Shown: positions 1 to 58,428 of the stretch, piece by piece | How the letters are laid out: the number at the start of each line of letters is the position of its first letter | How positions within the stretch are numbered: position 1 is the first letter of the stretch | Source of the DNA: Candidatus Bathyarchaeota archaeon | Lineage (GTDB): Archaea > Thermoproteota > Bathyarchaeia > 40CM-2-53-6 | Assembly: GCA_963733055.1 (NCBI GenBank) | Contig: CAVTBR010000002.1 | Span: forward strand, 1-64,000 | Length of the DNA stretch: 64,000 nucleotides | Reading direction: 5' to 3' | The notes under the pieces: model-generated | Database searches by the model: none | What the model was told of the DNA's origin: nothing | Seen by the model: only the letters and a program-made list of their open reading frames with translations | Translations under genes and position numbers: made by a program

Positions 1-317
1 TCGTGCGGTCCGGTAGACGATGACGCGTTTGGTGCGGTGCCACTGAAGGATGCGGGCAGAACAAAAGCGTCATATGTGGGCCCACCGAAATCGGGGACGA
101 CGTACAAGTAAACGACGTTCGATTGCGTCGTCGGACTGTTCTGCGTGGTCATGAGGGACGATACGATTCCTGCAAGGTCTCCAAATTGTGAAGCCAACTG
201 ATCGATGTGCCCACTTTGATCGGTCACCGCGGCAGTTAGGAGAAAAGTTTGTGTCAGGGACGTGCCTGCGATGACCAAGGTCAGTATTACGACGCCTAAG
301 AGAACCCTATCGTTCAT
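1..317 (-). CDS. Partial membrane-anchored exported protein, possibly cupredoxin-like (runs off window start)
   Basis: Manual translation from ATG at 317: MNDRVLLGVVILTLVIAGTSLTQTFLL...VYLYVVPDFGGPTYDAFVLP, open to the window edge, with an N-terminal hydrophobic anchor. The cupredoxin call is inference from the PDxGxxxxDAF segment and the redox context; no copper ligands are visible. Confidence 0.55.
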   Translation of the reverse strand, partial: MNDRVLLGVVILTLVIAGTSLTQTFLLTAAVTDQSGHIDQLASQFGDLAGIVSSLMTTQNSPTTQSNVVYLYVVPDFGGPTYDAFVLPASFSGTAPNASSSTGPH

Positions 318-798
318 GCATCGTCGGAGAGAGAAACGCACTATTAAGCAGGAATACGTTTTCCAACATTGGAAAGCTGGTACTTCAAACATTTGTCTTT
401 CCGCCGGATTGAACACCTACGCCTACTGCAAACTTCGAAAAAACACATGTAGGTCGTACCCGCGACATGGCGGGGACAGTGGGATAGGTAACCCAACATT
501 ACCATGCTCGAAGCGTCTAGGATCGAAGATGCTTTCAAACGTCCTTCAGCTATACGAGAAATCCTAACCGAAGAGGTATTGGTGTGGGTTGCCACACTCA
601 AACACAACGACTGAGCAACGCTATGTGTGAGTCTCGCCGTGCCTACTGCGATCAGAAAGATGGCGGTTCGAATCAGCCGATCAAGTAGAAGTTGACGAGT
701 GGCAATCGATAGGTATCGAATCCTACCTCGCAGAGAATCCCGACCTAACCCACTGCGTATGATTGCGGAGGCTTGGGACTGACTGTATTGTATTGTGA

Positions 799-2004
799 CT
801 ATGCTGCCCATATGTTGCCGTTGGAATCGACGGTCAAGGTGACTGAGGGTAATGGGAATTGAGCCGGGCCTTGGAGGACCGCCTCGGCGTGGGACGGGTC
901 GAACGCTGCACCGTGACAAGGGCATCTTATCGTGGAGGATGAGCTATCGTAACCTACAGTGCAAGGCCTGTGGGTGCAGGTTGAAGAATACGCAACTACG
1001 CTTCCGTTCTGAAGCCTGACCAATATGTCCGGATTTCCTTGTTGGTCCGTAAAATAGATGGAAGAATTCACCGGAATGTTGGCGATATTACCGATTTTGA
1101 CTCCCGCAGGAATGGGATCCTGTGAATTAGTGGCCGTCTGTGGTTGAACCACGGGCTGCTGGACTTGGGACTGTGTCTGTGAGGGAGCTTGAATTGAAGG
1201 GGCCATTTCTGCTGCCCACGTAGCCACTCCACCGAATGTTACTGCAACGGCGGTCCCTGCAGCCAACATGGCAATCTTTTGCAGCGCCCCTCGGCGTGGG
1301 AGATCGATTCTTCCGCTAATGCCGATGACTTCCGGTTTCAAGAAGCGTTTTAGGGATTTGAGGACGGCGTACTCCGAACCAGCTCCTATCAGCCCAAGGG
1401 TCCCGAACAACAGCCAGATGGAAACAGTCGGGCCCAGTGGAGCAATAGTCGAGCCTACAGTGAGTGTATGGACTTCAGCCAGAATAAGCGCCCCCACCAT
1501 CAACCAAAGGTGTAGCTTCTTGATGGACCCGAAGGCCTTCAGCTTGCGCTTCGACTCCAAGAAGATACCGGAAAGGCCAAGAGTTAAGAGAACCAGGAAA
1601 GCTGCAATTCCGAGTAAAGTGCCTGCGAATGAGTAAGTGATGCTTGAGAGGAGAAATAGGCCGTGAATCGCAGCAAAGACGGTTACGAGGATGGAGAGCG
1701 CGACATGCATTTCCCGCCAACCGTAAACGCGATTCTCCGTGTAGAGCTCCGAAATAACTCGACCCCCTTCGTGCCCTAACGTGTTCGCTCGCAATCGGGA
1801 CATGTACCGCTTATCCGCCCAAGCCTTCCAGAAGCCTTGAATTACGAGGCCTCCAGAGGCTGCCAGAGCGCCCCATCCCAGCAGTTGGGCGTAATTGTAA
1901 GTTCCGAGGATTGCCGTTTGTTGCGTGGCGAGACTCAATCCGAAACCTGCTACTGCGGCGAGAACCGCGATAACTAACCATATCGTTGAACGCACTGCCA
2001 ACAC
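799..2004 (-). CDS. Polytopic membrane protein (ferric-reductase-like His-bearing helices) fused to a C-terminal Rieske [2Fe-2S] domain
   Basis: Several TM helices containing His (MHVALS, AIHG, KLHLW, EVHT), RR-type motif RRGALQK plus TM, Gln/Pro linker, Rieske boxes CTHRPC and CPCHG. Confidence 0.85.
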   Translation of the reverse strand: MLAVRSTIWLVIAVLAAVAGFGLSLATQQTAILGTYNYAQLLGWGALAASGGLVIQGFWKAWADKRYMSRLRANTLGHEGGRVISELYTENRVYGWREMHVALSILVTVFAAIHGLFLLSSITYSFAGTLLGIAAFLVLLTLGLSGIFLESKRKLKAFGSIKKLHLWLMVGALILAEVHTLTVGSTIAPLGPTVSIWLLFGTLGLIGAGSEYAVLKSLKRFLKPEVIGISGRIDLPRRGALQKIAMLAAGTAVAVTFGGVATWAAEMAPSIQAPSQTQSQVQQPVVQPQTATNSQDPIPAGVKIGNIANIPVNSSIYFTDQQGNPDILVRLQNGSVVAYSSTCTHRPCTVGYDSSSSTIRCPCHGAAFDPSHAEAVLQGPAQFPLPSVTLTVDSNGNIWAA

Positions 2005-2022
2005 CGAACGATGTGTTGTGTG

Positions 2023-2268
2023 CTAATCGTCGCCGCTCGAACAGCCGTCGTCATTGTTGCAAGTCTGTTTCTGTTGGGGCGGTGGGGGAGCGTTGACCGT
2101 GCCCGAAGCTGGCGAATTAGTTGGTGAATTTCCCGAGATCGGTTGGTTTTGTTGATTAACTTGGCTAAGTGTGGGCGCATGCATTTTGATTATTGCAAGT
2201 CCGCCGACTGCCGTTATCGCTAGTATAGCAATCAAAAGTGCAACCACAACGGGCGTTGTCGTTCTCAT
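2023..2268 (-). CDS. Small membrane-anchored protein
   Basis: N-terminal hydrophobic helix, N/Q/P-rich linker, C-terminal CNNDDGC; lies 18 bp upstream of the Rieske fusion on the same strand. Confidence 0.6.
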   Translation of the reverse strand: MRTTTPVVVALLIAILAITAVGGLAIIKMHAPTLSQVNQQNQPISGNSPTNSPASGTVNAPPPPQQKQTCNNDDGCSSGDD

Positions 2269-2433
2269 TCGTCGAACAACTCAATCGAGGATATGTGTGA
2301 GACTCCAGTTCGCGGAGGAGACGTTATAGATTCGATGATCGGTCGGAAGAAAACTGATCCCTCGCTTCTATAATCTTGCGATGTTCGCCTCAACGAACTC
2401 ACCTTACGATTTGCGTAAATCCAGTAGAGTCCC

Positions 2434-2467
2434 TTATAATCCGGATTCATCTTCGGTGCACACCAAA
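2434..2467 (-). promoter_or_regulatory. Operator palindrome (TTCGGTGCACACCAAA, 2452-2467) plus TATA box (TTATAA, 2434-2439)
   Basis: Near-identical to the sites at 5811 and 6641, with the same 12-bp spacing to the TATA box. Confidence 0.7.
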
Positions 2468-2703
2468 GAGTATTCAATCGATCTTTAGAGAGGTCGCCGC
2501 ATTCGTGAAAAGTCGCTCCAAGTATTGGGTTTAGGATTCCGAACGCCGAAAGTGCTACGCCTAACCCGGTAACATTTTCCGTGTTGAGCGGAAATCTGTA
2601 ATTAATCTACTATGTTAATTTGCAACCTAGCTGTTTCAATTGTCTGTGACATCAATGCTCCCACCATCGACCCAGAGAATCTCCAAGGGACGTTGTATCT
2701 AGA

Positions 2704-3504
2704 ATGCCGAATGCCGGTGGTTATCAATGGCTCCCCTCAACCCTCCTCCTTCCTCTCAGGGTTTTCTTGGGTGCCACGTTCCTTTATGCAGGCGTTCAAC
2801 ACCTGACAGACCCTTCTTACTTCGACCCGTCCAGGCCGGGTTTCATTGGTCGTCTTGTAACTCAGTACGCAGTCGGTTCGCCTCTCCATGATTTTCTCCG
2901 GGGCGTCGTGCAACCGCACGCGGTCGGCTTCGGGTATCTTGTCGCAACTGGAGAGATTCTCATTGGCTTGGCAGTTCTTGTGGGGTTACTATTTCGCGTT
3001 GCTTGTATCGCGGGTCTAGCGCTTAACCTTACATTCTTTCTTTCGGCCACTTGGACTGTCTTCCCATTTTACTTCGGGTCGGACATAGTTTTCGCGGTGG
3101 GTTGGTTGACCTTACTCTTGACTGGGCCTCAGGCAAATATGAGTATAGATGGCGCGCTCTCGCGACGATTTAGCTCGTTGGGCTGGCTGTTATCTGGATC
3201 GTCTGCGATTCCGAGAGCGGAAACAACGCAACCTGAAAAAACCTCGGTGCCCATGGAGACTCTGCAGGCTCCGTCAAAGGCGGGCTTGTATCCTAAACAA
3301 GTTAGGGAAGTAAACAGCTCCTTTAACAGAATTAAGGAACAATTTCTGGGCAATGAGGAGACACAGTCGGTGCTTGAGATGCTCCGCGTTTTTGTGATCA
3401 GCCTAGGAGTTGATAGGAAAGATTCGGTCAAAGTGCTTGATGGGATCACGAATACTTTGAGAAGAGATGCATGGCAGCTGGATACAGAGGGAGGGTCTGA
3501 ATAA
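2704..3504 (+). CDS. doxD: DoxD/DoxX family (TQO small subunit-like) membrane protein, copy 1
   Basis: LLPLRVFLGATFLYAGVQHLTDP, GEILIGLAVLVGL and FFLSATW...YFGSD motifs typical of DoxX/DoxD; extra C-terminal soluble domain. Confidence 0.8.
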   Translation: MPNAGGYQWLPSTLLLPLRVFLGATFLYAGVQHLTDPSYFDPSRPGFIGRLVTQYAVGSPLHDFLRGVVQPHAVGFGYLVATGEILIGLAVLVGLLFRVACIAGLALNLTFFLSATWTVFPFYFGSDIVFAVGWLTLLLTGPQANMSIDGALSRRFSSLGWLLSGSSAIPRAETTQPEKTSVPMETLQAPSKAGLYPKQVREVNSSFNRIKEQFLGNEETQSVLEMLRVFVISLGVDRKDSVKVLDGITNTLRRDAWQLDTEGGSE

Positions 3505-4134
3505 TTGCCTGAGTCAGAGGAATTATACGAACGATTACGTAGTCAATGCGGTTTGACGCTTTCAAAGGATACCTTCGTTTCATTATATTCCGATAAGCCG
3601 AGCGTTCCTGTACCGATGACTCGCGCTGCTTTCCGACCGACTGGAGCTTTCATGAGTCATGAGCAGGCTAAACGGGTCAGCGTTCAGAGGGGTAGACGTA
3701 GTTTTCTGCGTAGCTTCATGGTGTTAGGGTTGGCGGGTGTGCTGGGTTTAATCTCGTGGAGCGCCTTATCGCAACCGCAGCCTCAAGCGCCTACCTATGT
3801 TTCAAATCCAGGCGCATCTGCCGGTCAGGTGCTTGCAACAGCGCAGAGTGTTCCCTCGGATTCATCGTTACTACTTAACGATCCGACATGGGGGCCTATG
3901 CTGTTGATTCATCTGGATAACGGGCATTTTATCGCCTACAGCGACGTTTGCACTCATGCGGGCTGCCAGGTGAATTTCAACCCATCCGACAAACTCATCG
4001 AATGCCCATGCCACGGAGCAGTCTATGACCCTTACCACGGTGCCCAGGTTCTGGCTGGACCAGCACCAAGCCCGCTAACGCAGATCCCGATCAGGTACGA
4101 TCAAGCTAGCGGAAACATATACCTACAATCGTAA
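3505..4134 (+). CDS. Rieske [2Fe-2S] protein with Tat-like anchor, copy 1
   Basis: RRSFLR plus TM helix; CTHAGC and CPCHG boxes; directly abuts doxD copy 1. Confidence 0.9.
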   Translation: MPESEELYERLRSQCGLTLSKDTFVSLYSDKPSVPVPMTRAAFRPTGAFMSHEQAKRVSVQRGRRSFLRSFMVLGLAGVLGLISWSALSQPQPQAPTYVSNPGASAGQVLATAQSVPSDSSLLLNDPTWGPMLLIHLDNGHFIAYSDVCTHAGCQVNFNPSDKLIECPCHGAVYDPYHGAQVLAGPAPSPLTQIPIRYDQASGNIYLQS

Positions 4135-4214
4135 AATCAAGTGTTCTCAGCAGCTATCGGGAGAAGAAACTACAAGTCAGGTCTTCTTTTGCGCTCTGCA
4201 ATGTTCCCCGACGA

Positions 4215-4925
4215 TCAACCGGTCAGGTAGATGTTGCCTGTTGACCCTTCATATTGTACTGGTACACTCTGAAGCGGGTATGGCGCTGGTCCACCTAAAA
4301 CTTGGGCGTTGTTGTTTGGATCGTATACCGCACCATGGCAAGGACAGACAATGTCCTTCATGGATGGGTCGTACTGAACTTGGCACCCTGCATGCGTGCA
4401 GATTGAGCTGTAAGCAACGAATTTTCCATTACCTAAGTGGATCAGAATTACGGGGCCATATGTTGAGTCGTTGAGAGTCAATGATTGGTCTACTGGAATG
4501 TTCGATGCGTTAGCTACCAACCTTGCCCCCTGTGACGCGGGATTCGTCGCGACGGTTTGGGGCAGGGTCTGGAGCTGAGTATTGGTTGGGAAATAGTTTA
4601 CCTGCTGGGCAGCAGTGTTAGGATTGTACGCTTGAGTGAGCGTTGGTTGGTTTAGAGCAGACATGATCTCATATAATGCTAATCCTGAGAACGAGAGCGC
4701 TGCAAGGCCTAGCATGGTTCGAAGGAAGTTTCTACGTTCTCGTTGGACACGAGATCGCTGTTGCGTTCGAACATCGACGTCGTGCCGAAATGATGCATGG
4801 GAAAGCAGTATGGGGAGTTTGGGTCGACCGTTCAGGCTTGAAACTATCACGTCATTTGGAACTCGCAACCCATAGACGGACACTAATCTCTTTGCAATTT
4901 GTTCGCTTTCCCCAACGTTTGTCAT
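4215..4925 (-). CDS. Rieske [2Fe-2S] protein with Tat-like anchor, copy 2
   Basis: RRNFLR plus TM helix; CTHAGC and CPCHG boxes; paralog of 3505-4134; 4-bp overlap with doxD copy 2. Confidence 0.9.
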   Translation of the reverse strand: MTNVGESEQIAKRLVSVYGLRVPNDVIVSSLNGRPKLPILLSHASFRHDVDVRTQQRSRVQRERRNFLRTMLGLAALSFSGLALYEIMSALNQPTLTQAYNPNTAAQQVNYFPTNTQLQTLPQTVATNPASQGARLVANASNIPVDQSLTLNDSTYGPVILIHLGNGKFVAYSSICTHAGCQVQYDPSMKDIVCPCHGAVYDPNNNAQVLGGPAPYPLQSVPVQYEGSTGNIYLTG

Positions 4926-5755
4926 TGTGTAAGAACATCTCCTAGTTTTGTCGTTGCTCCCTCGGTAGGATGCCGGGTGAGGATGCTCTGAAGAGCGGTT
5001 AGGATTCGTATGGCGTCGTTTCGATCGACGCCTAGGCTTATGACGAATGCTCGCACGAACTCAAGCATGGTCTGGGTCTCTCGGTGCAAAATGTATTGTC
5101 GCTTGATTCGGTCGAATGCATTGTTTATTTCACGCACCTGGTTCGGGTATAGGGTCGCCTTGCTCGGAATTGGAACGTGAACCTCAGGCGTTTCGGCCTT
5201 GATCGGTTTTACGGCATCATTCGTTTGAGGGCTTCCCCGATAGGTTTTGGGCAATAACCACCCCAAAGAACGATGACGCGTTGCCAAGGCGCTATCGATA
5301 CTGTACTTCAGTTGCGGCCCGGTTAACAGTAGGGTTAACCAGCACATGACGAAGACGATGTCCGAACCGAAGTAGAATGGAAACGCGTTCCATGTGGCAG
5401 ATAGATAGAACGTGAAGTTGAGTACTAGTCCAGCGAACGCTGCGATCCTGTATAGGAAACCGGTTAGGACCGCGATTCCTATCAGACACTCTCCGATTGC
5501 AACCGAGTATCCGAACGCAACAGCGTTTGGCTCAACTACACCGGTGAGGAATGCGTGAATCGGCGATCCGATTGAATACCCTACAACAAGTCTTCCGATG
5601 TACCCCGCCATGGAGGGGTTGAAGTAGGCAGGATCAGATAGGTGCTGTAATCCTGCGTAAAGGAACGTGAGACCCATGAATATTCGTAACGGCCAAAGCA
5701 GACTCGCAGGACGCATTGGGTTAGCTGAGATTTTGACAGGCCCCGTTGTGTCCAT
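4922..5755 (-). CDS. doxD: DoxD/DoxX family membrane protein, copy 2
   Basis: LWPLRIFMGLTFLYAGLQHLSDP; clear full-length paralog of 2704-3504. Confidence 0.8.
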   Translation of the reverse strand: MDTTGPVKISANPMRPASLLWPLRIFMGLTFLYAGLQHLSDPAYFNPSMAGYIGRLVVGYSIGSPIHAFLTGVVEPNAVAFGYSVAIGECLIGIAVLTGFLYRIAAFAGLVLNFTFYLSATWNAFPFYFGSDIVFVMCWLTLLLTGPQLKYSIDSALATRHRSLGWLLPKTYRGSPQTNDAVKPIKAETPEVHVPIPSKATLYPNQVREINNAFDRIKRQYILHRETQTMLEFVRAFVISLGVDRNDAIRILTALQSILTRHPTEGATTKLGDVLTQ

Positions 5756-5792
5756 CGAGATTTCACAGAACGAACCTCAACTGCAGGTTGAC

Positions 5793-5826
5793 ATTTAAGT
5801 GGACGCCACTTTCGGTGTACACCGAA
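5793..5826 (-). promoter_or_regulatory. Perfect 16-bp palindrome TTCGGTGTACACCGAA (5811-5826) plus TATA-like TTAAAT (5798-5793) upstream of doxD copy 2
   Basis: Read directly from the sequence; 12-bp spacing to the TATA-like box, as in the other two copies. Confidence 0.75.
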
Positions 5827-5846
5827 GATGAATCGGGTTCCGCACG

Positions 5847-6230
5847 CTACTCTTTGTCGTCAGGGAGTAATTGCCTCTCTAACGAATCGAGTTTCTCAAA
5901 TCTTTCTCCCCATCTCGAGACGAAATTTCGTTGCTTGATCCAGACACCCAGCGACCACAAGACCGCTACTAACGAGGCGAACAGAAGGAACCAATCTGCG
6001 TACTCGAAATCAAAACCCCTCTCATCATGAAAAGGGCGAAGGTTGAACGGAGCGGGGCCAATGTTCACGAAGAAGATAAGGAAGCGTGAAAGGAAGATTA
6101 ACAGTATAATCGAACCGATCAAGTTAACTTTGGCCTGAGTGCGAAAGCGATTGAACTCCGTCGAGGCCTCCTGCAAGAACCTATGAAGGGTCGCTATCGG
6201 GTATTCATCTTCCTTCTCGGACAAAGCCAT
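5847..6230 (-). CDS. Two-TM membrane protein of unknown function
   Basis: Two hydrophobic helices with charged termini; downstream of the wHTH gene on the same strand. Confidence 0.7.
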   Translation of the reverse strand: MALSEKEDEYPIATLHRFLQEASTEFNRFRTQAKVNLIGSIILLIFLSRFLIFFVNIGPAPFNLRPFHDERGFDFEYADWFLLFASLVAVLWSLGVWIKQRNFVSRWGERFEKLDSLERQLLPDDKE

Positions 6231-6290: not shown

Positions 6291-6584
6291 CTAAAGAATT
6301 GAAGGTAGGATCTCCCTGAGTTTAAGGTAAACATTTCTTCCCTCGGTCGACAGCCGAATGCCTTCCTCCGACTCCTCAATGAAACTCTTACCTCTAAGGT
6401 AATCCAAGTACTTCTGAAAGTCGTCGTACGAGAGTTGAGTGGCATGGCGCCATAGTGAGGATTTAGAATGCGCACCGACGTTATAAAACAGGAATTCCAG
6501 AATCTCAAACCGTATCTGCACGGGCGATTTCCTGGCAGATCGCGTTGGCTTCACAGCAGCACTCATCGGCTTCGCCCCCTGCAC
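6291..6584 (-). CDS. Archaeal winged-helix transcriptional regulator (HTH_45-like)
   Basis: RKSPVQIRFEILE...LSYDDFQKYLDYL...LSTEGR pattern of small archaeal wHTH proteins. Confidence 0.8.
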   Translation of the reverse strand: MQGAKPMSAAVKPTRSARKSPVQIRFEILEFLFYNVGAHSKSSLWRHATQLSYDDFQKYLDYLRGKSFIEESEEGIRLSTEGRNVYLKLREILPSIL

Positions 6585-6640
6585 GCGACTCCTTCTAATA
6601 TTCTAATTTGACTATTTCTCGGTGAGCCACCTTTACCGTT

Positions 6641-6674
6641 TTCGGTGTGCACCGAAGGTGAATCTGAATTATAA
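6641..6674 (+). promoter_or_regulatory. Operator palindrome TTCGGTGTGCACCGAA (6641-6656) plus TATA box TTATAA (6669-6674)
   Basis: Lies between the divergent wHTH and zinc-finger genes; 12-bp spacing to the TATA box. Confidence 0.75.
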
Positions 6675-9759: not shown

Positions 9760-11929
9760 TTAGTTGAACTCGCCGCGTGCGAGCACCGGCGCGATTTTGT
9801 TGGAAGTGACGGTTGCTGATAGCATCATTGTTGACAGCACGAGCGCTGCAGATGAGATCATTAGTACTGGCGATGAGCCTGCGAATTCACCGATGGCTAA
9901 CCCCAGACCGCTCGAGAGGACTGCGGCCAGAAGCAACCTCGCTAGGTGTCTTCCGACGGAAGCTCCTCTGAAACGTTTGACTTTCGCTCGTACGAGGCTT
10001 ATGGGTAGGCCTAGGTAGAAGGCTCCAATCAACCCGCTCGCGAGGAGGCCAGCGAAGGTGATCGCTAGTTCGGGTGAGGCGCTGGTGGCTTGGAAGGTTC
10101 TGTATGACAGGGTTAGGATTCCGACCAGTGGGTATAGCAGGGCTTGCATGAATGTGCGTTCGACCCAGTGGCTGGCGATGTAGTTCGCGACGGGTGGGCT
10201 GAAGGAGTAGTACCACGCGATTGAACGCGAGCATGAAGCTCGATCCTGCGCTAGTTCTCATGATTGAATTATCGCGGAAGTTGCGGAGCACTTGGACTTG
10301 TGATGCAACCGCCGAGCCGTAGGTGGCTGTGGCGATTATGCATGATGGGCCCTGGGTGTTTACTTGTAGTGTTATGTCGGTGCTATGGCTTGCGGATCCG
10401 CTTGTGCCCGTCACTTGGAGTACGAAGGTTCCAGTCGACCCTGTCGAGGAAGTTGCGAAGCTAACAGGCGAGCTGCCTTGACCGCTGGGTGGGGGTGTTA
10501 CTGTTTGCGGGATAGTGACTGCGATGCCTGTGGGGGCGTTTCCGACCCAGGACGTGGAGAAGGCTACGGGTGAACTGAACCCTCCAACCGAATTAACAAT
10601 AACGTTCGTTGAGGCACTGAGGCCCGGTATGACGGAAACCGTTGCCGAACTTGGTGCGATGTTGAAGTCCGGAGCGGCGGCTGCGACTGGGGCGAAGACG
10701 GAGGGTGTACCCGCGATTGCGACATTGATATCGGTTGTGTGCGAGACCGCACCATCCGTGGCGGTCACTGCGAGAGTGTAGCTGCCGGTTGAAGGGGCGT
10801 TGTCAGCGTTGATAGTTAGCGTTGAAGTTGCTGTGCCGCCCGTCGGGACAGTTACGGGGCTAGGCAGACTGAAACTAACTCCACCCGGGGCTGCTCCAAC
10901 CCACGCGGTGGCCAAGCTCACTTGGCCATTGAATCCATTTATCGATGAAATGGTTACCGTCGAGTATTTTGTACCGTCCGGCGTTAGGGTAATTGTATTA
11001 GGGGTTGGCTGGAATCCGAAGTCGGCTGCAACTCCGCTCGTTATCAGAGTGCCGCTCCCCGATACGATCACTTGGAGGGTGGCTGCGTGCGCTATTGCGC
11101 CGCTTGTAGCGGTCACTTTGAATGGATACGTTCCAGGTGCTACGGTTCCTGAGACGAAGATGGTGAGCGTGGGTGACGACGTGCCTCCGGCTGAGGTCTC
11201 AACCTTGCTCGGCCCGTTGAAGGAAGCCGTCACACCAGGTGGCGCAGAAAAGGTGAGCGCGACAGGGGAAGCGAAGTTGTCTAGCGAAGCCACGAATACG
11301 TTAAGACTGCCAGATGCTCCCTGTGCGATTCCAATGCCTGTTGTTGAGAAGGCTATTGAGAAATCACCGTTGTATTCGATGAATCCCCAAGAGTTAGCCT
11401 GGCATTGGCCCGCTGCGTAACCGCACCCATTCGTGTATGGTGATGAGCATGCGTCCCATTTGATTAGAGACGATCCAGAATTATCTTTCAGGTCAAGTGC
11501 GTAGACCGCGCCTGGAGTTACAGGTATGCCGCTCGGAAATTGTACTTGGAGCCAGTCACCAGTCGGTTGGCCGAATTGAGCTGGCACAGTAAAGTCAACG
11601 GAACCCACTAAAGTCCCCTCGATTCCATTCACGCCGGCTACTCCATTGGAGATTATGTTCGCGGTCATCGGTGTGGGGACAGCATTGTCTGATCGTAAGT
11701 GAAGCGCGAACCCTACAATCGATGATTGGGTTGGAATGAACGTTTGGCCAGCGGGTGAGTGTACGCCGACGCCGTCAAGGTAGGAACCCCCAATCGAAGA
11801 ACATTGCTGGTCGGCAGCGGGGGCCGCATTCACAGTGGACACAGTCAGGAACAATGAGGCTACAATTAGAAGTAAGGCTACTGTCGCTAACGTCGGTCTT
11901 GCATATCCAAGTTTCGACATCTGAATCAA
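9760..11929 (-). CDS. Large surface protein with internal repeats and a CFI-box-CTERM domain (frameshift near 10220)
   Basis: Signal peptide; three repeats DF...V.S..(G/N)F...V.L; CIIATATYGS...LRNFRD...FN-AWYYSFSP restored by deleting one base; continues into ORF 9760-10149. Confidence 0.8.
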
Positions 11930-13618: not shown

Positions 13619-15188
13619 TTACTCTGGCGGGATCTCTTTGAAGACCAAGTCCAAAGGTAGACCTTTGCTTCGCGCTCTGAGGTAGCCCACGACCAGAACT
13701 ATAGCGCCCAGCAGGTAAATTGTCCCATACATTGTCTCAGAGAACGAATCAATAGGTAGCGTTCCTGACTGGCTTGCAAGGTATGTTGAATAGATTAAGT
13801 AAATGGCCGAGCCGAGCCCCAGCCAGCTGATCAGCGGAATGATGAATTTTTTCTTCGCTACGAAACTGTTCTCGTATACCGCCTTCTTTCTGTAGGGGAA
13901 AACGATCGCCGCGATGGCGGGGATTATAAAACCGAACGAGAACATTGTGAAAGCCAACGTGGCGAATTCCCCGGAGTTCGGTAGATAAGCCATCAACCCC
14001 GCGGCTATCAGTCCTCCGATCGTGACGATGATCGTGGCGACGATGGGCGTGTGGAATCTTTCGTTCACCGATGCAATCTTCTCCGGAAGGATCCTATCGA
14101 ACGCCCACGCAAACAAATACCTGGTCTGCGCGATTATGAGAGGTGGGAACTCGAAGAAGATTGGCAACCACAAAGCCAGGAACATTGTCACGTAAAGCGC
14201 CGGGTTGTTGTAGACAATCAACGCGAAGAAGGGTATGAAGCCCCCAACCCCCGGGATTGGCGATGCGCCTGTTGCAGCAAGGCTGCTCCAATTATCGAGG
14301 AATGGTTGTCCGAAGGCGTGTGTTACTAGTATCGAGAATGCTATGTAGTAAACAGCGATGGCGGCGATCGCAACAAGGATTGCGATGGGCATTGATTTCT
14401 TGACGTTCTTCATTTCTCCGCTCCAGGTTGTGGGGAGGTTGTACCATGTGTATGCGAACCACACGAACGGAAGCGCAGCCAGCGGTTGCGAGCATGGTAT
14501 TAGGTGGGGGCGTGAGTCCGCCTTGTTGAATTACGCTCTGATAAGCTGTTGAGTTACTCATGAATGAATTGTACGAGGCGGCAAACGTATCCTGATTGAT
14601 CATCGCTAAGGCCCCGAACATTACAACCGTAGCGACTAGAGACACAACGCCCGCCCAGAAGACCATCGTCCAAGTGTAGCGTGGCCTAATCATCGACAAT
14701 ACGCTTGAAATCAGAATAACCGAAGCAGCCAAGGCGAATGACGGACCTGAAGAGGCCAGAAACGCCCCCACGTTGGCAGCGCCCACGGAATGATAGAAGG
14801 CCCCAACGCCTGCAAGCACATATCCAAAATAGGTTCCCGTGTAGTACGAAAAGATGCCGAGGTTAAGTACGAAGGCAATTGCAACCCCCCAATAATTGAG
14901 GAAGCCCACGTAAGGATTCAAACCCCTTGTCGTGAACACGTAGTCTCCACCGGACCTTGGCATCGAGATCCCAATTATCGTAAAAAGGCCAGCCATCAAG
15001 AAGCTTGGAAGGACTGCGATCAAGTAGGCTAAAGGCCAGTTGGCGCCGGGGGCAGTGTACATTATCGCAACCCACAGGACAGGCACCCCTCCAGTAACAA
15101 GCGCAAGAACGGCCATGAAGGATGACCACGCGCCTACTTCACGAACTAGACCTGTTGCTTCTCGCACAAAGACAGGTGGTTTTTCCAA
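13619..15188 (-). CDS. APC-family amino acid/amine permease (frameshift near 14480)
   Basis: FVREATGLVRE, MPRSGGDYV, SGEMK and FAWAFDRILP motifs; two overlapping ORFs join after removing one base. Confidence 0.85.
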
Positions 15189-21126: not shown

Positions 21127-22443
21127 GTGGCTTGCTTGCGCAAGGAACCTACCCTTTCACATGATGACCATGAGGTTGCTGGGAAGGGTTTCAAGCATTT
21201 GACGCCCACAAACGAGGCGCTTGAGACAGTCATCGGACGTGTTCCAAAGCGCGACATGGAGGTTGAGAACGTTTCAGTGTTGTCTGCTCTCGGCAGGATT
21301 CTCAGCCATGACCTGATATCCCCATCGGATATTCCCCCTTTTGATCGTGCAGCCATGGATGGTTTCGCGGTCAGAGCGGAGGACACGTACGGCGTGTCGG
21401 CCAGCTCACCAATATTACTGAATTCCCTCGGCGGCGTAGCGATTGGCACCCAACCTACTGTGAGCGTTAGAAAAGGCGAGGCCGCGTTCGTCGTTACGGG
21501 TGGTCAGATGCCGCAAGGCGCAAACGCCGTGGTCATGGTCGAGTACACAAGACACGCTGGGGATAGTGGCGTGGAGGTTTCTGGGGAAGTGCATCCGGCG
21601 GAGAACGTTTCGAGAATCGGAGAGGACGTTAGAAAAGGAAGTGTGGTTTTGAGAGCGGGGACACGACTGCTACCGCAAGATATTGGCATGCTAGCATACC
21701 TTAGATTCCTAAAAGTCGCTGTAAGGCGGAAGCTCAAAATCGCTGTGCTCTCGACGGGGAATGAAATCCAAGAAGAACCTGAGGCGAAATCAGGCAAAAT
21801 TCCCGATGTCAACCGTCCCACCTTGTTAAGTGCTGTTCGCGAACTAGGCTGCGAACCCATCGACATGGGCATTGTACCGGACGAGTTTAGTGAGATACAG
21901 GAAAAGCTGCAAGAGGCGTTTGATGCGAGCGACCTTATTCTCGTTACGGCAGGTACGTCGGTCGGACCCGGCGACATGGTGCCCAGAGTGATTGACTCTC
22001 TGGGCAAACCGGGAATGTTGGTGCATGGGGTTGCGATGCGGCCTTCGATGCCCACTGGTTTGGGAGTCGTGAACGGAAAACCAATCGTGTCACTACCAGG
22101 CTATCCCGTTTCAGCTTATCTCGCCTTCCTCGAATTCGTCCCGACATTAGTCAATCACCTTCTCGGAACGAACTCGCTACCCAGGCCCACGGTTAGGGTT
22201 AAGCTCCGTAGGCGTGTTGCGGGAGTGTTGGGTTCCAGAACCTACGTGCGTATTCAGGTTGCGGAAAGCGGAGGCAGCCTGTTTGCCGATCCAGTCAGAA
22301 CCTCGGGCGCCGGAATCCTCAGTAGCTTGGTTCAAGCTAACGGTTTTCTCATCGTGCCCGAACACGTCGAGGGTTATGAAGAGGGTGAAATGGTCGAAGT
22401 TGAACTCTTCAGAGCAGTGGAGCGAGAGCAAGCTGACAAGTGA
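21127..22443 (+). CDS. moeA: Molybdopterin molybdo/tungstotransferase MoeA
   Basis: PPFDRAAMDGFAV, STGNE, GTSVG and LPGYP motifs. Confidence 0.95.
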   Translation: MACLRKEPTLSHDDHEVAGKGFKHLTPTNEALETVIGRVPKRDMEVENVSVLSALGRILSHDLISPSDIPPFDRAAMDGFAVRAEDTYGVSASSPILLNSLGGVAIGTQPTVSVRKGEAAFVVTGGQMPQGANAVVMVEYTRHAGDSGVEVSGEVHPAENVSRIGEDVRKGSVVLRAGTRLLPQDIGMLAYLRFLKVAVRRKLKIAVLSTGNEIQEEPEAKSGKIPDVNRPTLLSAVRELGCEPIDMGIVPDEFSEIQEKLQEAFDASDLILVTAGTSVGPGDMVPRVIDSLGKPGMLVHGVAMRPSMPTGLGVVNGKPIVSLPGYPVSAYLAFLEFVPTLVNHLLGTNSLPRPTVRVKLRRRVAGVLGSRTYVRIQVAESGGSLFADPVRTSGAGILSSLVQANGFLIVPEHVEGYEEGEMVEVELFRAVEREQADK

Positions 22444-24427
22444 TAGAAAGGTCTTCCGCGACCTCCAAAGCCTAGAGGATGCAAATTCCAAATTCTGGGC
22501 GACATATCACGAAAGTACCCGGAGCGTTGAGAAGGTTCCGCTTGAGCATGCCCTTGGGAGGGTACTCGCGGAAGACGTTTTTTCCGGAATAGATGTACCT
22601 GGTTTTGATCGTGCTGCGATGGACGGCTTCGCAGTTACGGCTGCAAACACTTTTGCAGCGGACGAGCAAAACCCCGTAAAGTTGAAGGTACTGGCCGACG
22701 TCGAAGCCGGGGACTCGGGGGGATATTCGACCTCGTCTAAGGAATCGTTGGAGATAGCTACTGGTGCGCCGATGCCGAAAGGTACCGACGCCGTGGTAAT
22801 GGTAGAATATACGAAGAAAACTGGATCTGAGGTTCTCGTTTACAGACCAGTTTCCCCTGGCGAGAACGTGACCGGGGCGGGTAGCGATATTATGACGGGG
22901 GAGCTTTTGCTTCGCAAATTCGAGCGAATAACTCCGCGCGAGATAGGACTACTTGCAGCTATTGGCTTGTCCTCAGTTTCAGTATATCGAAAACCACGCG
23001 TCGCGATATTCTCAAGCGGAAACGAACTCATTAAGCCCGGCGACTCGCTTCGGTTCGCGAAGATCTACGACATCAACGGCCCAGCGGTCTCTGCCGCCGT
23101 TGCCGAGTGCGGAGGCGAGCCTCAATTCTTGGGCATCCTACCGGACAATTACTCCGCCGTCAAAGACAGCCTCGAATCAGCCCTGAAGGAGGCGGACATA
23201 GTCATCTCTTCAGGAAGCACATCCTCGGGCCCGGGTGACCTATTCTACCGAGCCGTAGACGACCTTGGAGAACCGGGCGTGATCGTGCACGGCTTGACTC
23301 TGAAACCCGGGAAACCAGCACTGCTCGGGATGGTCAGAGGTAAACCGATTTTCGGATTGCCAGGCTACCCCACATCCGCACTAATGATCTTCCATATGCT
23401 CGTCGCCCCGATAATTCGCAAGCTCGCGAATGCACCAGAAGTTGCCCCCGTCAAGGTTACCGCTGTTTCGCCGATGAAATTCTTCAAAGCCCGCGGACGC
23501 CGAGAGCTACTCCCAGTCCAGCTGATAACCACGCCCAACGGCGCACTGATCGCATACCCGATGCAAAGCGGATCCGGGGCTGTAAGCTCATTCTCCATGG
23601 CGGATGGCTTTGCGGACCTTCCCGAGACGCAAGAGTACGTGGACGAAGGTGAGAGGATGGAAATCCAACTGTTTGGAAGAGAGCTATCGCCTGCGTCGCT
23701 GGTCGTGATAGGTAGTAACTGCGTCGGATCGGATATCGCGTTCAGTATGCTGAAGGAGCATGATCCGAATTTTCTTGGAAGAACCATAAACGTTGGCTCC
23801 GTCGGCGGCTTCCACGCCATCAAGCGCGGTGAGGCTGATATGGCCGGAGTTCACCTTCAGGATGAAGCAAGCGGAGAATACAATCTGCCCTTCCTCTCGT
23901 CCTACGGCCTCAAACAATCAGCCATCTTGGTACGAGGTTACGACCGTGAACAAGGCTTGATCGTTAAAGATGGAAACCCGAAGAAAATCTTGGAAATCCG
24001 GGACCTCCTCCGACCTGACGTTCGCTTCATCAACCGTAACAAAGGGTCCGGGACGAGGCTTCTCATCGACCGCCACCTAACCACTCTCGCCTCATCCATA
24101 GGGACCGACCTCGACGGTCTCTCGATCAAGATTCAGGGATACGGCTATGAGGTAAAGTCACATTCAGCCGTAGCGGCAGCGGTGAAGAACGACCGCGCAG
24201 ACGTAGGGTTCGGCATCAGAACCGTCGCCGAAGTGCCCGGTCTAGACTTCATCAAGCTAGACGACGAAAAATATGACTTCCTGATTGGAAAGGACCGTAT
24301 GACCAAGAAACAGGTACAAGCATTCGTCGATCTGTTAGCATCTAAGGAATTCTCTACGGCCCTTCGAACTCGCGCCCCTGGACTCAGTAGCAATCAACAA
24401 TCTGGGACAATATTGTTTCAGCCGTAA
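22433..24427 (+). CDS. moeA: MoeA fused to a C-terminal substrate-binding (PBP) domain
   Basis: DRAAMDG, SSGNE, KPGKP and LPGYP, then GSVGG and FINRNKGSGTR. True start is probably near 22433, not 22214. Confidence 0.9.
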   Translation: MTSDRKVFRDLQSLEDANSKFWATYHESTRSVEKVPLEHALGRVLAEDVFSGIDVPGFDRAAMDGFAVTAANTFAADEQNPVKLKVLADVEAGDSGGYSTSSKESLEIATGAPMPKGTDAVVMVEYTKKTGSEVLVYRPVSPGENVTGAGSDIMTGELLLRKFERITPREIGLLAAIGLSSVSVYRKPRVAIFSSGNELIKPGDSLRFAKIYDINGPAVSAAVAECGGEPQFLGILPDNYSAVKDSLESALKEADIVISSGSTSSGPGDLFYRAVDDLGEPGVIVHGLTLKPGKPALLGMVRGKPIFGLPGYPTSALMIFHMLVAPIIRKLANAPEVAPVKVTAVSPMKFFKARGRRELLPVQLITTPNGALIAYPMQSGSGAVSSFSMADGFADLPETQEYVDEGERMEIQLFGRELSPASLVVIGSNCVGSDIAFSMLKEHDPNFLGRTINVGSVGGFHAIKRGEADMAGVHLQDEASGEYNLPFLSSYGLKQSAILVRGYDREQGLIVKDGNPKKILEIRDLLRPDVRFINRNKGSGTRLLIDRHLTTLASSIGTDLDGLSIKIQGYGYEVKSHSAVAAAVKNDRADVGFGIRTVAEVPGLDFIKLDDEKYDFLIGKDRMTKKQVQAFVDLLASKEFSTALRTRAPGLSSNQQSGTILFQP

Positions 24428-24436
24428 TTTGCGTGT

Positions 24437-25495
24437 TCAAAGAACCTCTACCGACGTCGCCTTGAAGAAAGCGTGCACGTCAGACCCAATGTTGAGCTGC
24501 ATCTCAAAGAATGATCGCCGCGTAACGATTGCCGTTATTCGTGCGTCCCCTGAGATTCTGAGCCTGATTGTTGGGCCGAGATCGGTCACTTCGGTCACTT
24601 TTCCATGGAATCTATTTCGCGCGCTAGAGTCCACACTGTGTTTGGATACGATAATGTTCTCGGGTTTAACGTGAACCATAACCTCACCCGTCCGATCGGT
24701 TATTGCTTCAATTATCCTACCAGCGCCCGTATCGATCAGAGCTAGGTCTTCCTCTCTTCGGACTATGTTTCCTCGAATCAAATTATCTGACCTGAAGATA
24801 GATTCTGCTTCCGGCGATGCTTTCTCAGCAAAGTCCGCGGGCGTTCCGACCTCAAGCATTCTACCGCTTCTCATCACACCAATTCTCTCCGCCACCGATG
24901 CAGCTTCTAATTGATCGTGGGTCACGTGGATGACTGTCACTCCAGTCTCTTTGTGAACGCGCCGTAGGTAATCTAGAATCGAACTCTTAGTTTCAGCATC
25001 AACCGCCGATAGCGGTTCATCGAGCAACACCGCGCGGGGTTCTACGGCGAGCGCACGAGCGAGAGAGACTCTTTGTCTTTCGCCGCCGCTTAGGTTTCGC
25101 GGAAATCGATTGACGAGTTGTGAGATTCCGAGTAGCTCCATCAGATGATTCGATTTGGATTTGCGTTCTTGTTCAGGGATTCCTTTGGCTTGTAAACCAA
25201 ATTCAATATTCTTCCGTACCGTCATGTTGTTGAAGAGCAGCTGGTTTTGCGGGGCGTAGCTGATCCTGCGCTTCTCGGGAGGAAGTTTGGAAACGTCTTC
25301 TCCACCCACAATTATGCGTCCTTCGCTGGGAGAGTAGGCGCCGGCGATTGCTTCCAGAAGCAGCGTCTTTCCTGAGCCTGTCGGGCCGAGTAAAACAAAG
25401 TAGCTTCCCTGAGGGATCGATAGGTTGATGTTTTTTAGCGCAAATTGCTCCCATTTGTGGGATAGGCTCTGGACTACGACTCCGTCGCTCATCAT
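24437..25495 (-). CDS. wtpC: Tungstate/molybdate ABC transporter ATPase with TOBE domain
   Basis: GPTGSGKT, LSGGERQR, LLDEP; SSARN TOBE motif. Confidence 0.85.
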   Translation of the reverse strand: MMSDGVVVQSLSHKWEQFALKNINLSIPQGSYFVLLGPTGSGKTLLLEAIAGAYSPSEGRIIVGGEDVSKLPPEKRRISYAPQNQLLFNNMTVRKNIEFGLQAKGIPEQERKSKSNHLMELLGISQLVNRFPRNLSGGERQRVSLARALAVEPRAVLLDEPLSAVDAETKSSILDYLRRVHKETGVTVIHVTHDQLEAASVAERIGVMRSGRMLEVGTPADFAEKASPEAESIFRSDNLIRGNIVRREEDLALIDTGAGRIIEAITDRTGEVMVHVKPENIIVSKHSVDSSARNRFHGKVTEVTDLGPTIRLRISGDARITAIVTRRSFFEMQLNIGSDVHAFFKATSVEVL

Positions 25496-26316
25496 TTGTC
25501 CCTCTTTCTCTGAACCAGCTTAAACATGATGAAGATCGCCAGGTTGATGAAGATCATGAGGGCCGCGACGTTGACGGACCCAGGGCTGAGGACTACGCCG
25601 TTTGAGATGGATTCGTGTAACCCATAACCCGCGTACAGGTTCCAAATCAGGATTGAAGCGACGGCCGGGTAGTAGGCCATTATGAAAAGGGCGCCGACCT
25701 CGCTCGACGCTCTCGCCCAAGTCAATATTGCGCCCGTAACTACTGAGCGCCAAATGTTTGGAAGAGTTACCTTAAGGAAAGTGAAGGTTGAGGATGCGCC
25801 TAGGCTTCGGGAAACGAGTTCCAGTTTGGGGTCTAGGGATTTGATGGCCTCTTCCACTTGCTTGACCGTATATGTGGCGCTGACGAAGATGAGGGTTAGG
25901 ACGATTGCTGCGACGTTATTTGTTAGCTTGATTCCGTATCCGTTAAAGGCTGCGCCCACAAGCTCGGCTGAACCGAAGATGGTGATAAGTGCGATTCCCG
26001 CAACTGTGTGAGGGATCATCAGAGGAATCTCGATCACAGAATCAATCAGAGACCTCCCAGGGAACCGGTACTTGCCGAGCAGATAACCCAAAGGCACACC
26101 CAAGACCACCGCCACTAATGCTGTCAACCCGGAAGTGTAGATAGTCAGTGCGATCGCAGATACCGCTTCTGAGTTATTGAGGGCCAGCAGCAATCCAGGG
26201 AGACTGCTAGTTCCGATGAGGCTGAGAACGGGCGAGAACAGGAGGAAGAACAGGATTCCGCTTAGAAGAGAGAGAACAAAGACGAATCTAATTGGAAAAC
26301 CGGGCGACATACGCAA
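25492..26316 (-). CDS. wtpB: Tungstate/molybdate ABC permease
   Basis: IPLMIPHTVAGIAL, SLGAS and WARASSEVGA motifs. Confidence 0.85.
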   Translation of the reverse strand: MRMSPGFPIRFVFVLSLLSGILFFLLFSPVLSLIGTSSLPGLLLALNNSEAVSAIALTIYTSGLTALVAVVLGVPLGYLLGKYRFPGRSLIDSVIEIPLMIPHTVAGIALITIFGSAELVGAAFNGYGIKLTNNVAAIVLTLIFVSATYTVKQVEEAIKSLDPKLELVSRSLGASSTFTFLKVTLPNIWRSVVTGAILTWARASSEVGALFIMAYYPAVASILIWNLYAGYGLHESISNGVVLSPGSVNVAALMIFINLAIFIMFKLVQRKRDK

Positions 26317-26418
26317 AGCAATACCCTCAAGGAATCAATAGCCATGGATGACCATTTCAATGTAGCCCGTCATGGCGACCTACGCCTTGGGCGAGGAGAC
26401 TCAAGGGGAACGGTGGGT

Positions 26419-27435
26419 TCAGGAGGCTTCTTTGATGGTAATGCCGGCTTGGGTTATCGCCTGGATAATGTCAGTTGGAACGGCGCTCTGATTGTAGATG
26501 TAGACCGGATTCAAGGGCTTGAGACCGCTTGCGCTGAGAATTTGTTGTCCCTGAGAACTGAATAGAGCTTTGACGAAGGCTATCGCCATGGACGTATCAG
26601 GACTGTTATTCGGAATCGTGAGGGCATAGAGGATCGGCGCCCCTGTAACCTGCTTCCCACTAACAGTCACATTCGCCGTCGCATACCAGTCCGCCTGCGA
26701 CAGATCCGATAGGTCTACCTTAGGGTCGAGGGTAAGGTACTGAAACTTGTGCGAGATCGCTTCAGAGGAATAGGTAAGGACGTAGTCCACCGCGCCTGTC
26801 TCTAGCTGTGCGTCCAGGGTTGTTTCTGTTGGGACGATTACGAGTTGATGTTGCGCCGCCTTGGTGACGTATAGCTGGTCGTACAAGTAGCTTGAGTTTT
26901 GGTAGTACAACAGGCCTGCGAGTTGAAGCATTATGATTGCCTGTGAGCCACTAGGGTCCGTATCTTTGTTAGAGACACCTACGACAACCCCCGGCTGCGT
27001 TATCACTTGGTACCAGTTTTGTGGAGTTATCTCGCCTGCAGATTTGCTATGATTAGTGTAAACGACACTCATCGCGTTAGATGCGAAGATAATGTACCAT
27101 GAGGCATGTGAAGGGATCAGTTGCTCTGGGATGATGCGGTAGTCGGCTGATGCGAAGATGTCAAATGACTTGTTGGCTTGGGTGATTTCGTTCGCTGCTA
27201 ATCGACTGCCCTCGAAAATGTAATTGTAGCTGAGAGTTGAGTATTGGGAACGCACGACATTGTTAACGATCCCATTGAAAGGCACCTGGAGCGTTCCAGC
27301 AGCATCTATCAGCAGAGTTGTGGACGGGTGAGTAGAACTCAGCCCCGAGTAATATCCGACCACATAACCGACTCCTAATCCTAACGCCAGGGACAGTATA
27401 AGGGCGACTTTGCCATATTTCACAATCAAACTCAT
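26419..27435 (-). CDS. wtpA: Tungstate/molybdate-binding protein
   Basis: AAGTL, EGSR, ASADY, DPSG, ET and Y.SEA pattern of WtpA; N-terminal TM anchor. Confidence 0.85.
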   Translation of the reverse strand: MSLIVKYGKVALILSLALGLGVGYVVGYYSGLSSTHPSTTLLIDAAGTLQVPFNGIVNNVVRSQYSTLSYNYIFEGSRLAANEITQANKSFDIFASADYRIIPEQLIPSHASWYIIFASNAMSVVYTNHSKSAGEITPQNWYQVITQPGVVVGVSNKDTDPSGSQAIIMLQLAGLLYYQNSSYLYDQLYVTKAAQHQLVIVPTETTLDAQLETGAVDYVLTYSSEAISHKFQYLTLDPKVDLSDLSQADWYATANVTVSGKQVTGAPILYALTIPNNSPDTSMAIAFVKALFSSQGQQILSASGLKPLNPVYIYNQSAVPTDIIQAITQAGITIKEAS

Positions 27436-58419: not shown

Positions 58420-58428
58420 AGGAATTAC

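Follow-up and report, generated by a model that had tools for sequence, protein, structure and literature searches.

Two convergent DoxD-like/Rieske gene pairs and a third, membrane-fused Rieske protein at a Candidatus Bathyarchaeota contig end as possible outward-facing electron-transfer modules

Rieske proteins are the textbook partners of cytochrome b, and Rieske clusters bearing a disulfide are typical of high-potential electron-transfer chains. The archaeal SoxM-type Rieske/cytochrome b complex uses a blue-copper acceptor, and DoxD is the membrane subunit of the thiosulfate:quinone oxidoreductase (TQO) DoxDA of Acidianus ambivalens. PetC3 of Synechocystis is a Rieske protein that works outside the b6f complex, its function being unsettled. 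In addition, excerpts of Tooke et al. 2017 (PMC5449189) describe proteins inserted by both Sec and Tat, namely the Streptomyces Rieske protein Sco2149, the Rieske homologue KSE_30950 with five transmembrane domains (TMDs), and the haem-b/molybdenum cofactor (MoCo) protein Sco3746, which has five TMDs, histidines for two haems b, a twin-arginine (RR) motif ahead of its final TMD and a MoCo domain at the C-terminus; the words DoxX and DoxD are absent from the main text of that paper. Herein, we describe the left end of a stretch of 64,000 nt (the window), with which contig C2 of a Candidatus Bathyarchaeota genome (2.88 Mb in 3 contigs, 96% complete, 5.3% contamination) begins. This end encodes two pairs of doxD-like and Rieske genes and a third Rieske domain fused to a histidine-bearing membrane domain. 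The pairs represent the split form of a large and uncurated DoxD-Rieske family, the members of which are single chains elsewhere, and our literature searches returned no description of a DoxD-Rieske fusion.

First, the two pairs are found as operons that face each other. On the forward strand, doxD1 (2704-3504, 266 aa; DoxD PF04173, 73.1 bits against a cut-off of 22.7) is followed by the gene for Rieske1 (3505-4134, 209 aa; Rieske PF00355, 43.5 bits against a cut-off of 20.3), the start of which abuts the doxD1 stop (3504/3505). On the reverse strand, doxD2 (4922-5755, 277 aa; 65.9 bits) is followed by the gene for Rieske2 (4215-4925, 236 aa; 45.0 bits), the start of which overlaps the doxD2 stop by 4 nt (4922-4925). 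A preliminary description of this stretch had placed these open reading frames (ORFs) at 2704-4134 (forward) and 5755-4215 (reverse) and had called the two operons paralogous, and both statements hold: DoxD1 and DoxD2 are 57% identical over 257 aa, the C-terminal domain included, and Rieske1 and Rieske2 are 42% identical over 232 aa. The third Rieske domain, which it had reported as fused to a histidine-rich membrane domain, is likewise present, at the end of a polytopic protein of 401 aa (799-2004, reverse strand; PF00355, 41.4 bits). As also described there, all three Rieske domains carry exactly four cysteines, supplied by the boxes CTH(A/R)(G/P)C and CPCH, and each is preceded by an RR-type anchor (RGRRSFLRS, RERRNFLRT and LPRRGALQK) ahead of a hydrophobic helix. 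The disulfide and cluster boxes, CxHxGC and CxCH, are invariant in alignments of the 401-aa family and of Rieske1-type proteins. Rieske1 consists of a conserved cytoplasmic N-terminal stretch of about 60 aa, the RR motif with its anchor helix, a linker of about 25 aa and the Rieske domain; the linker of Rieske2 is longer, at about 55 aa, and the N-terminal stretch and RR motif are conserved across 22 aligned sequences. The second box reads CPCHG-A-x-(Y/F), with alanine in all the window Rieske domains, tyrosine in Rieske1 and Rieske2 and phenylalanine in the 401-aa protein. The alanine occupies the place of a serine in high-potential bc1 Rieske proteins, and mutagenesis work gives a lead that these clusters may lie in the lower part of the Rieske potential range, as in menaquinol oxidisers.

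Second, the DoxD and Rieske proteins belong together, as shown by their fusion into one gene in relatives. With DoxD1 as the query, 1169 representative clusters were matched at E<=1e-3, and a C-terminal Rieske motif was observed in 71 of the best 150 of them. A scan of species-representative genomes gave 514 confirmed loci of the DoxD-Rieske type, the best 80 of which, comprising 20 archaeal-type and 60 Chloroflexota-type (mostly Ktedonobacteria) loci, were used for the locus counts out of 20 and 60 given here. The Rieske gene lies directly 3' of doxD on the same strand in 20/20 archaeal-type loci, and the two are one fused gene in 58/60 Chloroflexota-type loci, the two others being one locus with no Rieske motif and one cut at a contig end. 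Among the 107 matches obtained with the 401-aa protein as the query (counted from the result table), 66 combine DoxD/DoxX and Rieske Pfam domains on a single chain; the remainder are its own family (27), Ser/Thr kinase-Rieske proteins (7), FAD oxidoreductase-Rieske proteins (5) and Rieske-only proteins (2). Aligned split and fused forms have a common layout of DoxD helices, cytoplasmic linker, RR motif, anchor helix, Pro/Thr/Gln-rich linker and Rieske domain, and the RR motif ahead of the anchor helix is kept in both. The closest relatives of the DoxD proteins are fused and the split-form Rieske gene is directly adjacent, which places the window pairs in this family, and none of the 6 fused relatives scanned reached the cut-off of any NCBIfam model. 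The pair is a real, conserved and uncharacterised membrane module with an outward-facing Tat-type Rieske domain, as the preliminary description had proposed.

The archaeal-type forms differ from the bacterial forms in two cytoplasmic pieces. By local BLAST, the C-terminal piece of DoxD was found in 20/20 and the N-terminal piece of Rieske in 17-20/20 archaeal-type loci, and both were found in 0/60 bacterial loci; these pieces probably hold the two halves together. That they might be repeats of one motif was considered and rejected (hhalign probability 0.08%), and the C-terminal domain of DoxD1 gave no usable match in the ESM Atlas. In a FastTree phylogeny of the DoxD core, with 194 sequences and any <240 aa left out, the archaeal-type proteins, i.e. 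the 20 and representative P0228, formed one clade with a support of 1.0, which under midpoint rooting, the true root not being established, sits within clades dominated by fused bacterial forms. This nesting suggests a transfer from bacteria and subsequent splitting. The family was observed in 3/201 evenly sampled genomes of the class of the host, all three of one genus. Two metagenome-assembled genomes (MAGs) of Acidobacteria type (L005, Candidatus Acidoferrum, and L018, Acidiferrales) also carry the archaeal-type split operon; these are probably mis-binned archaeal contigs, and the order of Kdp genes, DoxD and Rieske is common to L005 and the Bathyarchaeota locus L007. At two further archaeal-type loci (L022, 5992-6772, and L023, 5884-6748), the DoxD gene is split into two ORFs and the Rieske gene is intact.

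Third, the structure of the DoxD proteins is that of a DoxX-fold domain free of cofactor ligands. The AlphaFold2 (AF2) model of DoxD1 (mean predicted local distance difference test score, pLDDT, 82.8; residues 11-160 >92) contains a four-helix DoxX-fold membrane domain (residues ~9-160) and a three-helix cytoplasmic C-terminal domain (~197-253), and DoxD2 has the same two-domain build. This fold, together with Pfam DoxD scores above the gathering score, places both in the DoxD/DoxX superfamily. No PDB chain was matched by the sequence of DoxD1, and the sole clear fold match was NACHO/TMEM35A (PDB 9h9e; Foldseek probability 1.00, TMt 0.68, E 0.087; Z 11.2, rmsd 3.4, 127 residues aligned, 18% identity). 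R19, E84 and G88 are the only invariant DoxD residues in 150 sequences, in which no conserved histidine or cysteine was observed; therefore, the domain has no haem or metal site. Conservation of the DoxD core is very high, and with the buried, charged R19 and E84 invariant it exceeds the needs of a passive anchor. On the outer face, the conserved loop residues W117, P121, G125 and D127 might serve for docking or for contact with quinol. A fold match to GGCX was considered as support for quinol binding and rejected: at Z 7.2 it covers residues 48-188, outside the vitamin K pocket, which according to an excerpt of PMC12647623 is formed by TM5-TM8. The Foldseek matches of VKOR to DoxD1 are weak (TM ~0.2).

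Fourth, the 401-aa protein represents a second kind of Rieske module. It comprises about six membrane helices with four invariant histidines, an RR motif with an anchor helix, a Gln-rich linker and a Rieske [2Fe-2S] domain, the model of which matches solved Rieske folds with Z 12.6-13.3. The histidines (H100, H114, H165 and H179) are invariant in 20/20 aligned homologues and are spaced as two H-x13-H pairs, which fall within the predicted helices 80-121 and 158-182. R237/R238 are nearly invariant and are followed by the helix 235-267 and then the Rieske domain; with the RR motif directly ahead of the last helix and the cofactor domain after it, the protein fits the dual Sec/Tat-inserted class. 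Weak, sub-cut-off Pfam matches in this family were exclusively to membrane families with haem b, i.e. DUF4405 (17/20), Ferric_reduct (2/20) and Ni_hydr_CYTB (1/20). From the histidine pattern, the membrane domain is predicted to bind, probably, two haems b. The statement of the preliminary description that the window contains no cytochrome b consequently needs qualifying: no PetB homologue is present, but the window may hold a haem-b protein of another kind. The family is small, with 27 full-length homologues and stand-alone membrane domains in L011 and L012; a word-index search for a short stand-alone histidine-bearing domain recovered only 2 proteins, the membrane domain gave no usable ESM Atlas match, and the fold matches to residues 34-188 of the model are generic helical bundles.

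Two small genes adjoin this fusion gene. Directly 5' of it, on the same strand, lies a gene for a single-helix membrane protein of 81 aa with two C-terminal cysteines (2023-2268, reverse strand; no Pfam match); homologues lie likewise in L007 (38% identity) and L012 (78%) and none was found in L013, i.e. the gene is present in 2/3 related loci with the fusion. On its other side, an ORF at 3-416 (reverse strand) runs off the contig start and encodes the first 138 aa of a membrane-anchored, cupredoxin-like protein. The suggestion that this might be a cupredoxin gains some ground from a paralogue, as set out below, but the window itself has only the N-terminal 138 aa, with no Pfam match. Position 1 of the window is the contig end, the assembly holds no sequence to its left, and no other contig end overlapped the window start or continued the cut gene when all contig ends were compared. 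Positions 5-2126 of the window are 98.3% identical in DNA to C3:7685-5557 (28 mismatches, 9 gaps), and this repeat may have caused the contig break. The similarity ends at window position 2126 inside the 81-aa gene, which is truncated on C3, and frameshifts break up the fusion gene on C3, the window copy being intact. The cupredoxin-like paralogue is whole on C3 (212 aa, L001:7411-8049); its residues 149-199 weakly match the CuA domains of ba3 oxidase subunit II (E 4e-4 to 1.4e-3), and its motif, C-x3-C-x3-M, has methionine at the place of a histidine in the CuA motif. Located 3' of it on C3 are genes for an NrfC-like 4Fe-4S protein, a 645-aa NrfD-like protein and an Ig-like membrane protein, and on the 5' side those for a thioredoxin-like protein, a P-type ATPase and a DedA protein. 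This region, a paralogous site and not the own flank of the window, is the best hint of what may lie to the left.

Fifth, a dedicated regulator might act at this locus. A gene for a 97-aa winged-helix DNA-binding protein (6291-6584, reverse strand; HTH_45 PF14947, 37.0 bits against a cut-off of 25.5) is a candidate local regulator, and a 127-aa two-helix membrane protein (5847-6230, reverse strand; weak sub-cut-off match to DUF2208) is encoded between it and doxD2. A 26-nt motif that holds the 16-bp palindrome TTCGGTG-NN-CACCGAA occurs three times in the window, against 0 expected from shuffles. The copies are the only three in the 2.88 Mb, all within 4.2 kb, with none elsewhere at up to 4 substitutions. 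Copy 1, with an imperfect palindrome (2444-2469, forward strand), occupies the stretch that separates doxD1, the ATG of which is 235 nt away, from the divergent 81-aa gene, the start of which is 176 nt away; copy 2, with the perfect palindrome TTCGGTGTACACCGAA (5809-5834, reverse strand), lies 54 nt 5' of the doxD2 ATG; and copy 3 (6639-6664, reverse strand) lies 55 nt 5' of the winged-helix gene. In the closest relative, L015, the motif is conserved 56 nt 5' of the doxD2 orthologue and a perfect palindrome lies 80 nt 5' of the orthologous winged-helix gene. Orthologues of the winged-helix gene stand 5' of doxD2-type operons in L015, L020 and L021, with those of the 127-aa protein in the same position. 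Palindrome matches with 2 mismatches in L011, L012 and L013 were rejected as background level. The winged-helix protein, acting on the palindrome, probably regulates its own gene as well as doxD2-Rieske2.

The host is equipped for aerobic respiration. Its genome encodes TatC, two haem-copper oxidases and two canonical cytochromes b, each adjoining a Rieske match and both on contig C3; the cytochrome b profiles PF00033 and PF13631 matched only C3:170k and C3:450k, with weak sites on C1 and C3. From these oxidases and Rieske/cytochrome b pairs, quinones and high-potential acceptors are expected in the cell. No RNA data set was listed as containing positions 2600-5800 of the window. The profile searches confirmed that the window encodes no PetB-type cytochrome b, DoxA or AioA, and, genome-wide, the known complexes to which petB, aioA or doxA would have pointed do not account for the pair. 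AioA had no match above its cut-off in the host genome (best 39.2 against 359 bits), and the Rieske proteins reached 52-54.1 bits with AioB against a cut-off of 95.65. They are also far under the cut-offs of the bc-type models, i.e. 52.8-55.3 against 275 for QcrA, 41.7-48.2 against 250 for PetC and 24.5-40.9 against 97.4 for the proteobacterial Rieske. Among solved proteins, AioB gave the best sequence match for the Rieske domain (E 1.4e-11), and PetC3 (PDB 5cxm) was among the best (E 7e-10; fold Z 12.6, 32% identity).

Herein, we propose that the locus encodes three membrane-tethered, outward-facing Rieske modules of two kinds, which would serve, under local control, as additional links, free of cytochrome b, from the membrane quinones to the cell surface, and we give this proposal about an even chance of being right. 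In the first kind, each doxD-like and Rieske operon would produce one complex, equivalent to the single-chain DoxD-Rieske protein but divided, in which a four-helix DoxX-fold domain without cofactor ligands is combined with a Tat-type anchor helix and, through a flexible linker, with an outer-face Rieske domain. The DoxD domain might hold quinol near the outer leaflet, and the Rieske cluster would take its electrons singly and pass them to an acceptor on the outer face, e.g. a cupredoxin or an oxidase; electrons would thereby leave the quinone pool without haem and without bifurcation. In this archaeal lineage, the splitting would have been accompanied by the gain of the two cytoplasmic pieces, at the C-terminus of DoxD and the N-terminus of Rieske. 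In the second kind, the 401-aa protein, a probable two-haem-b membrane domain would be joined to Rieske by an internal RR helix and inserted by Sec and Tat, and would move electrons across or along the membrane to the adjoining CuA-like cupredoxin. The preliminary description had read the locus as an uncharacterised quinone-to-outside module, which is a reasonable reading, with quinone binding and the direction of the electrons as its conjectural parts. More tentatively, and with less confidence than in the proposal itself, DoxX-fold/Rieske proteins might constitute a new class of haem-free quinol:acceptor oxidoreductases, in effect a minimal complex III lacking cytochrome b, common in soil Chloroflexota and Actinomycetota, passed to aerobic Bathyarchaeia and split there with docking pieces, the same lineage having separately built a two-haem/Rieske chain unrelated to cytochrome b.

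Several observations weigh against the proposal. No experiment or structure ties a DoxX-fold protein of this family to quinone, and NACHO, the only solved relative by fold, is a chaperone; for the second quinol electron, DoxD offers no further cofactor; and the GGCX match is weak and off the vitamin K pocket. Concerning the 401-aa protein, all the haem-family matches are sub-cut-off (DUF4405 at best 21.1 against 26.7 bits, best E 2.4e-4), the membrane part of the AF2 model is poor (pLDDT 50-64), and hhalign of the family with the two cytochromes b of the host, as single-sequence targets, gave probabilities of 0.7% and 0.3%. Concerning regulation, the distance between copy 1 of the motif and doxD1 is as much as 235 nt, and no motif is present at L004, the locus of the doxD1 orthologue. 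Moreover, clustering of 892 ORFs from the best 80 loci revealed no redox partner, donor or acceptor, shared beside the pair in either lineage. The neighbourhood survey that the preliminary description had called for thus bore out the adjacency of DoxD and Rieske but gave no conserved redox partner next to them.

This last result would also suit a redox sensor, in which the Rieske domain, facing outwards, would sense how reduced the surroundings or the quinone pool are, and DoxD, or a kinase domain in other proteins, would pass this signal on instead of conducting respiratory current. The same Rieske subtype is joined to Ser/Thr kinase domains in 7/107 matches (P0169, P0171, P0178, P0185, P0198, P0201 and P0209; 37-49% identity over the domain), which suggests that the domain may also act as a redox sensor on the outside. 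Near the fused gene, a response regulator is found in 15/60 bacterial loci and a histidine kinase likewise in 15/60, and the window locus has its own winged-helix gene and locus-specific palindrome. However, DoxD has no known output domain, the archaeal loci are without a kinase, and the kinase and response-regulator neighbours may be mere shared synteny among related Ktedonobacteria. The recurring bacterial neighbours include penicillin amidase, CysRS, the response regulator, the histidine kinase, a helix-turn-helix (HTH) protein, a His-rich membrane protein, flotillin and PspA; in the Ktedonobacteria loci L027-L079, an HTH gene (22), the His-rich membrane protein (21), PspA (17), flotillin (16) and a small membrane protein (14) were counted, of 60, as genes that follow the fused gene. 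The recurring neighbours are most simply explained as synteny among relatives, and the genes counted in L027-L079 could be a membrane-stress neighbourhood or plain synteny. The archaeal-type neighbours are variable, e.g. Kdp, ribosomal proteins and EF-1alpha. In our judgement, the sensor is an unlikely explanation.

Equally unlikely, we consider, is electron flow in the reverse direction, in which Rieske would take electrons from an external donor, e.g. Fe(II), reduced humics or a soluble enzyme, for DoxD to deliver to quinone, as in TQO and arsenite oxidase. DoxD is on the quinone-reducing side in TQO, which counts for this direction. The relatives are MAGs of Bathyarchaeia, Ktedonobacteraceae and Chloroflexia, those with homologues closest to the window proteins being of Candidatus Bathyarchaeia; part of the window was recovered in one run, labelled soil metagenome; and the long, variable linkers (about 25-55 aa here and longer in the fused forms) could reach past the membrane surface. 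Nevertheless, disulfide-bearing Rieske clusters are usually more positive than menaquinone, so that reduction of the quinone would be uphill, and no donor enzyme is encoded nearby, AioA and DoxA being absent.

Less probable still is that DoxD is a mere anchor or assembly helper, like NACHO, and that the Rieske proteins serve the two canonical Rieske/cytochrome b complexes as spares or alternatives to their own subunits. The DoxD fold is represented by one solved structure only, that of a chaperone, and the canonical cytochrome b genes are present elsewhere in the genome, but both of these already have their own adjacent Rieske genes, the occurrence of DoxD-Rieske fusions in hundreds of bacteria points to a lasting unit, and buried invariant charges in DoxD also speak against a helper. 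Finally, a TQO or other sulfur enzyme, as suggested by the DoxD name, the Pfam DoxD match and the source annotation ('thiosulfate dehydrogenase [quinone] large subunit'), is very improbable and largely refuted, since the sulfur link was based on the DoxD name alone, DoxD1 and DoxD2 reached only 30.1 and 29.4 bits with the equivalog TQO_large_DoxD (NF041179) against a cut-off of 300, DoxA (PF07680) gave 0 matches at E<=0.1 in the 96% complete host genome, and the partner is Rieske and not DoxA; as judged from these profiles, the pair is not a TQO.

The preferred reading, i.e. quinol-to-acceptor transfer by membrane-tethered Rieske modules, does not extend to the locus as one functional unit. 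The three Rieske genes had been regarded as a redox "island", but a second pair within 6 kb was observed in 0/20 archaeal-type loci, and the haem-type Rieske fusion was nearby in 3/20; therefore, the convergent arrangement in the window is local. Five MAGs have two copies of the pair, which are 1.2 Mb apart on the same contig in one MAG and on different contigs in the other four. The tungsten AOR of the region, mentioned in the same context, is a real gene (50551-52389, reverse strand), but at 45 kb from the DoxD-Rieske genes it is unrelated by position.

Some other features of the window were observed. The region 21127-27435, with two MoeA genes (one fused to a PBP-like domain) beside an ABC transporter with a TOBE domain and a binding protein, looks like a cluster for molybdate/tungstate uptake and cofactor insertion, which plausibly serves AOR and the xanthine-dehydrogenase-type genes at 57071-60816. 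An amino-acid permease is broken across two overlapping ORFs at 13619-15188, and at 9760-11929 a 680-aa surface-type protein, the C-terminus of which reads as out of frame, lies above a 129-aa membrane ORF; frameshifts or assembly indel errors are possible at both. A gene for an IS240-type DDE transposase (47735-48901) is located within a stretch of lower G+C (0.46-0.475).

If quinol is turned over, a family of Rieske proteins wired to DoxX folds would add an unrecognised branch to respiration. The 1169 clusters and 514 loci belong to a family that no curated model matched, and the label of thiosulfate dehydrogenase (quinone) large subunit, under which such proteins are deposited, can lead to false calls of sulfur oxidation when metagenomes are surveyed. 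Docking between the two halves can be studied naturally in the split archaeal form, and the 401-aa fusion is one more of the few proteins for which a requirement for both Sec and Tat is expected.

In comparison with the known systems, the following likenesses and differences are observed. With TQO DoxDA, the pair shares a membrane subunit of the same Pfam family (PF04173) and presumed work at the quinone pool; it differs in the Tat-type Rieske partner, the extra cytoplasmic domain, the absence of DoxA and the lack of any sulfur-gene link found. As in the bc1, b6f and SoxM-type complexes, the Rieske domain has the disulfide cysteines and an RR anchor, but the window has no adjacent PetB homologue and DoxD has no haem ligands; the 401-aa protein resembles cytochrome b in its two H-x13-H pairs and the cupredoxin gene alongside. 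AioB likewise has a Tat-type anchor, whereas the Rieske scores with its model are sub-cut-off and the host has no AioA match above the cut-off. PetC3 is, similarly, a small Rieske protein of the plasma membrane, but it has neither a DoxD partner nor a haem-type membrane domain. NACHO/TMEM35A is the only solved protein with the four-helix DoxX-type fold; as a eukaryotic ER chaperone with no redox role, it informs the fold and not the function. As far as the excerpts of PMC5449189 describe them, the dual Sec/Tat proteins share Sec-type helices, an RR motif ahead of the last helix and an outer cofactor domain with the 401-aa fusion and the fused DoxD-Rieske proteins, although DoxD-Rieske is here divided over two genes. 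In the same excerpts, Sco3746 resembles the 401-aa protein in its transmembrane histidines for two haems b, with a MoCo domain in the place where the histidine-bearing domain described herein carries a Rieske domain.

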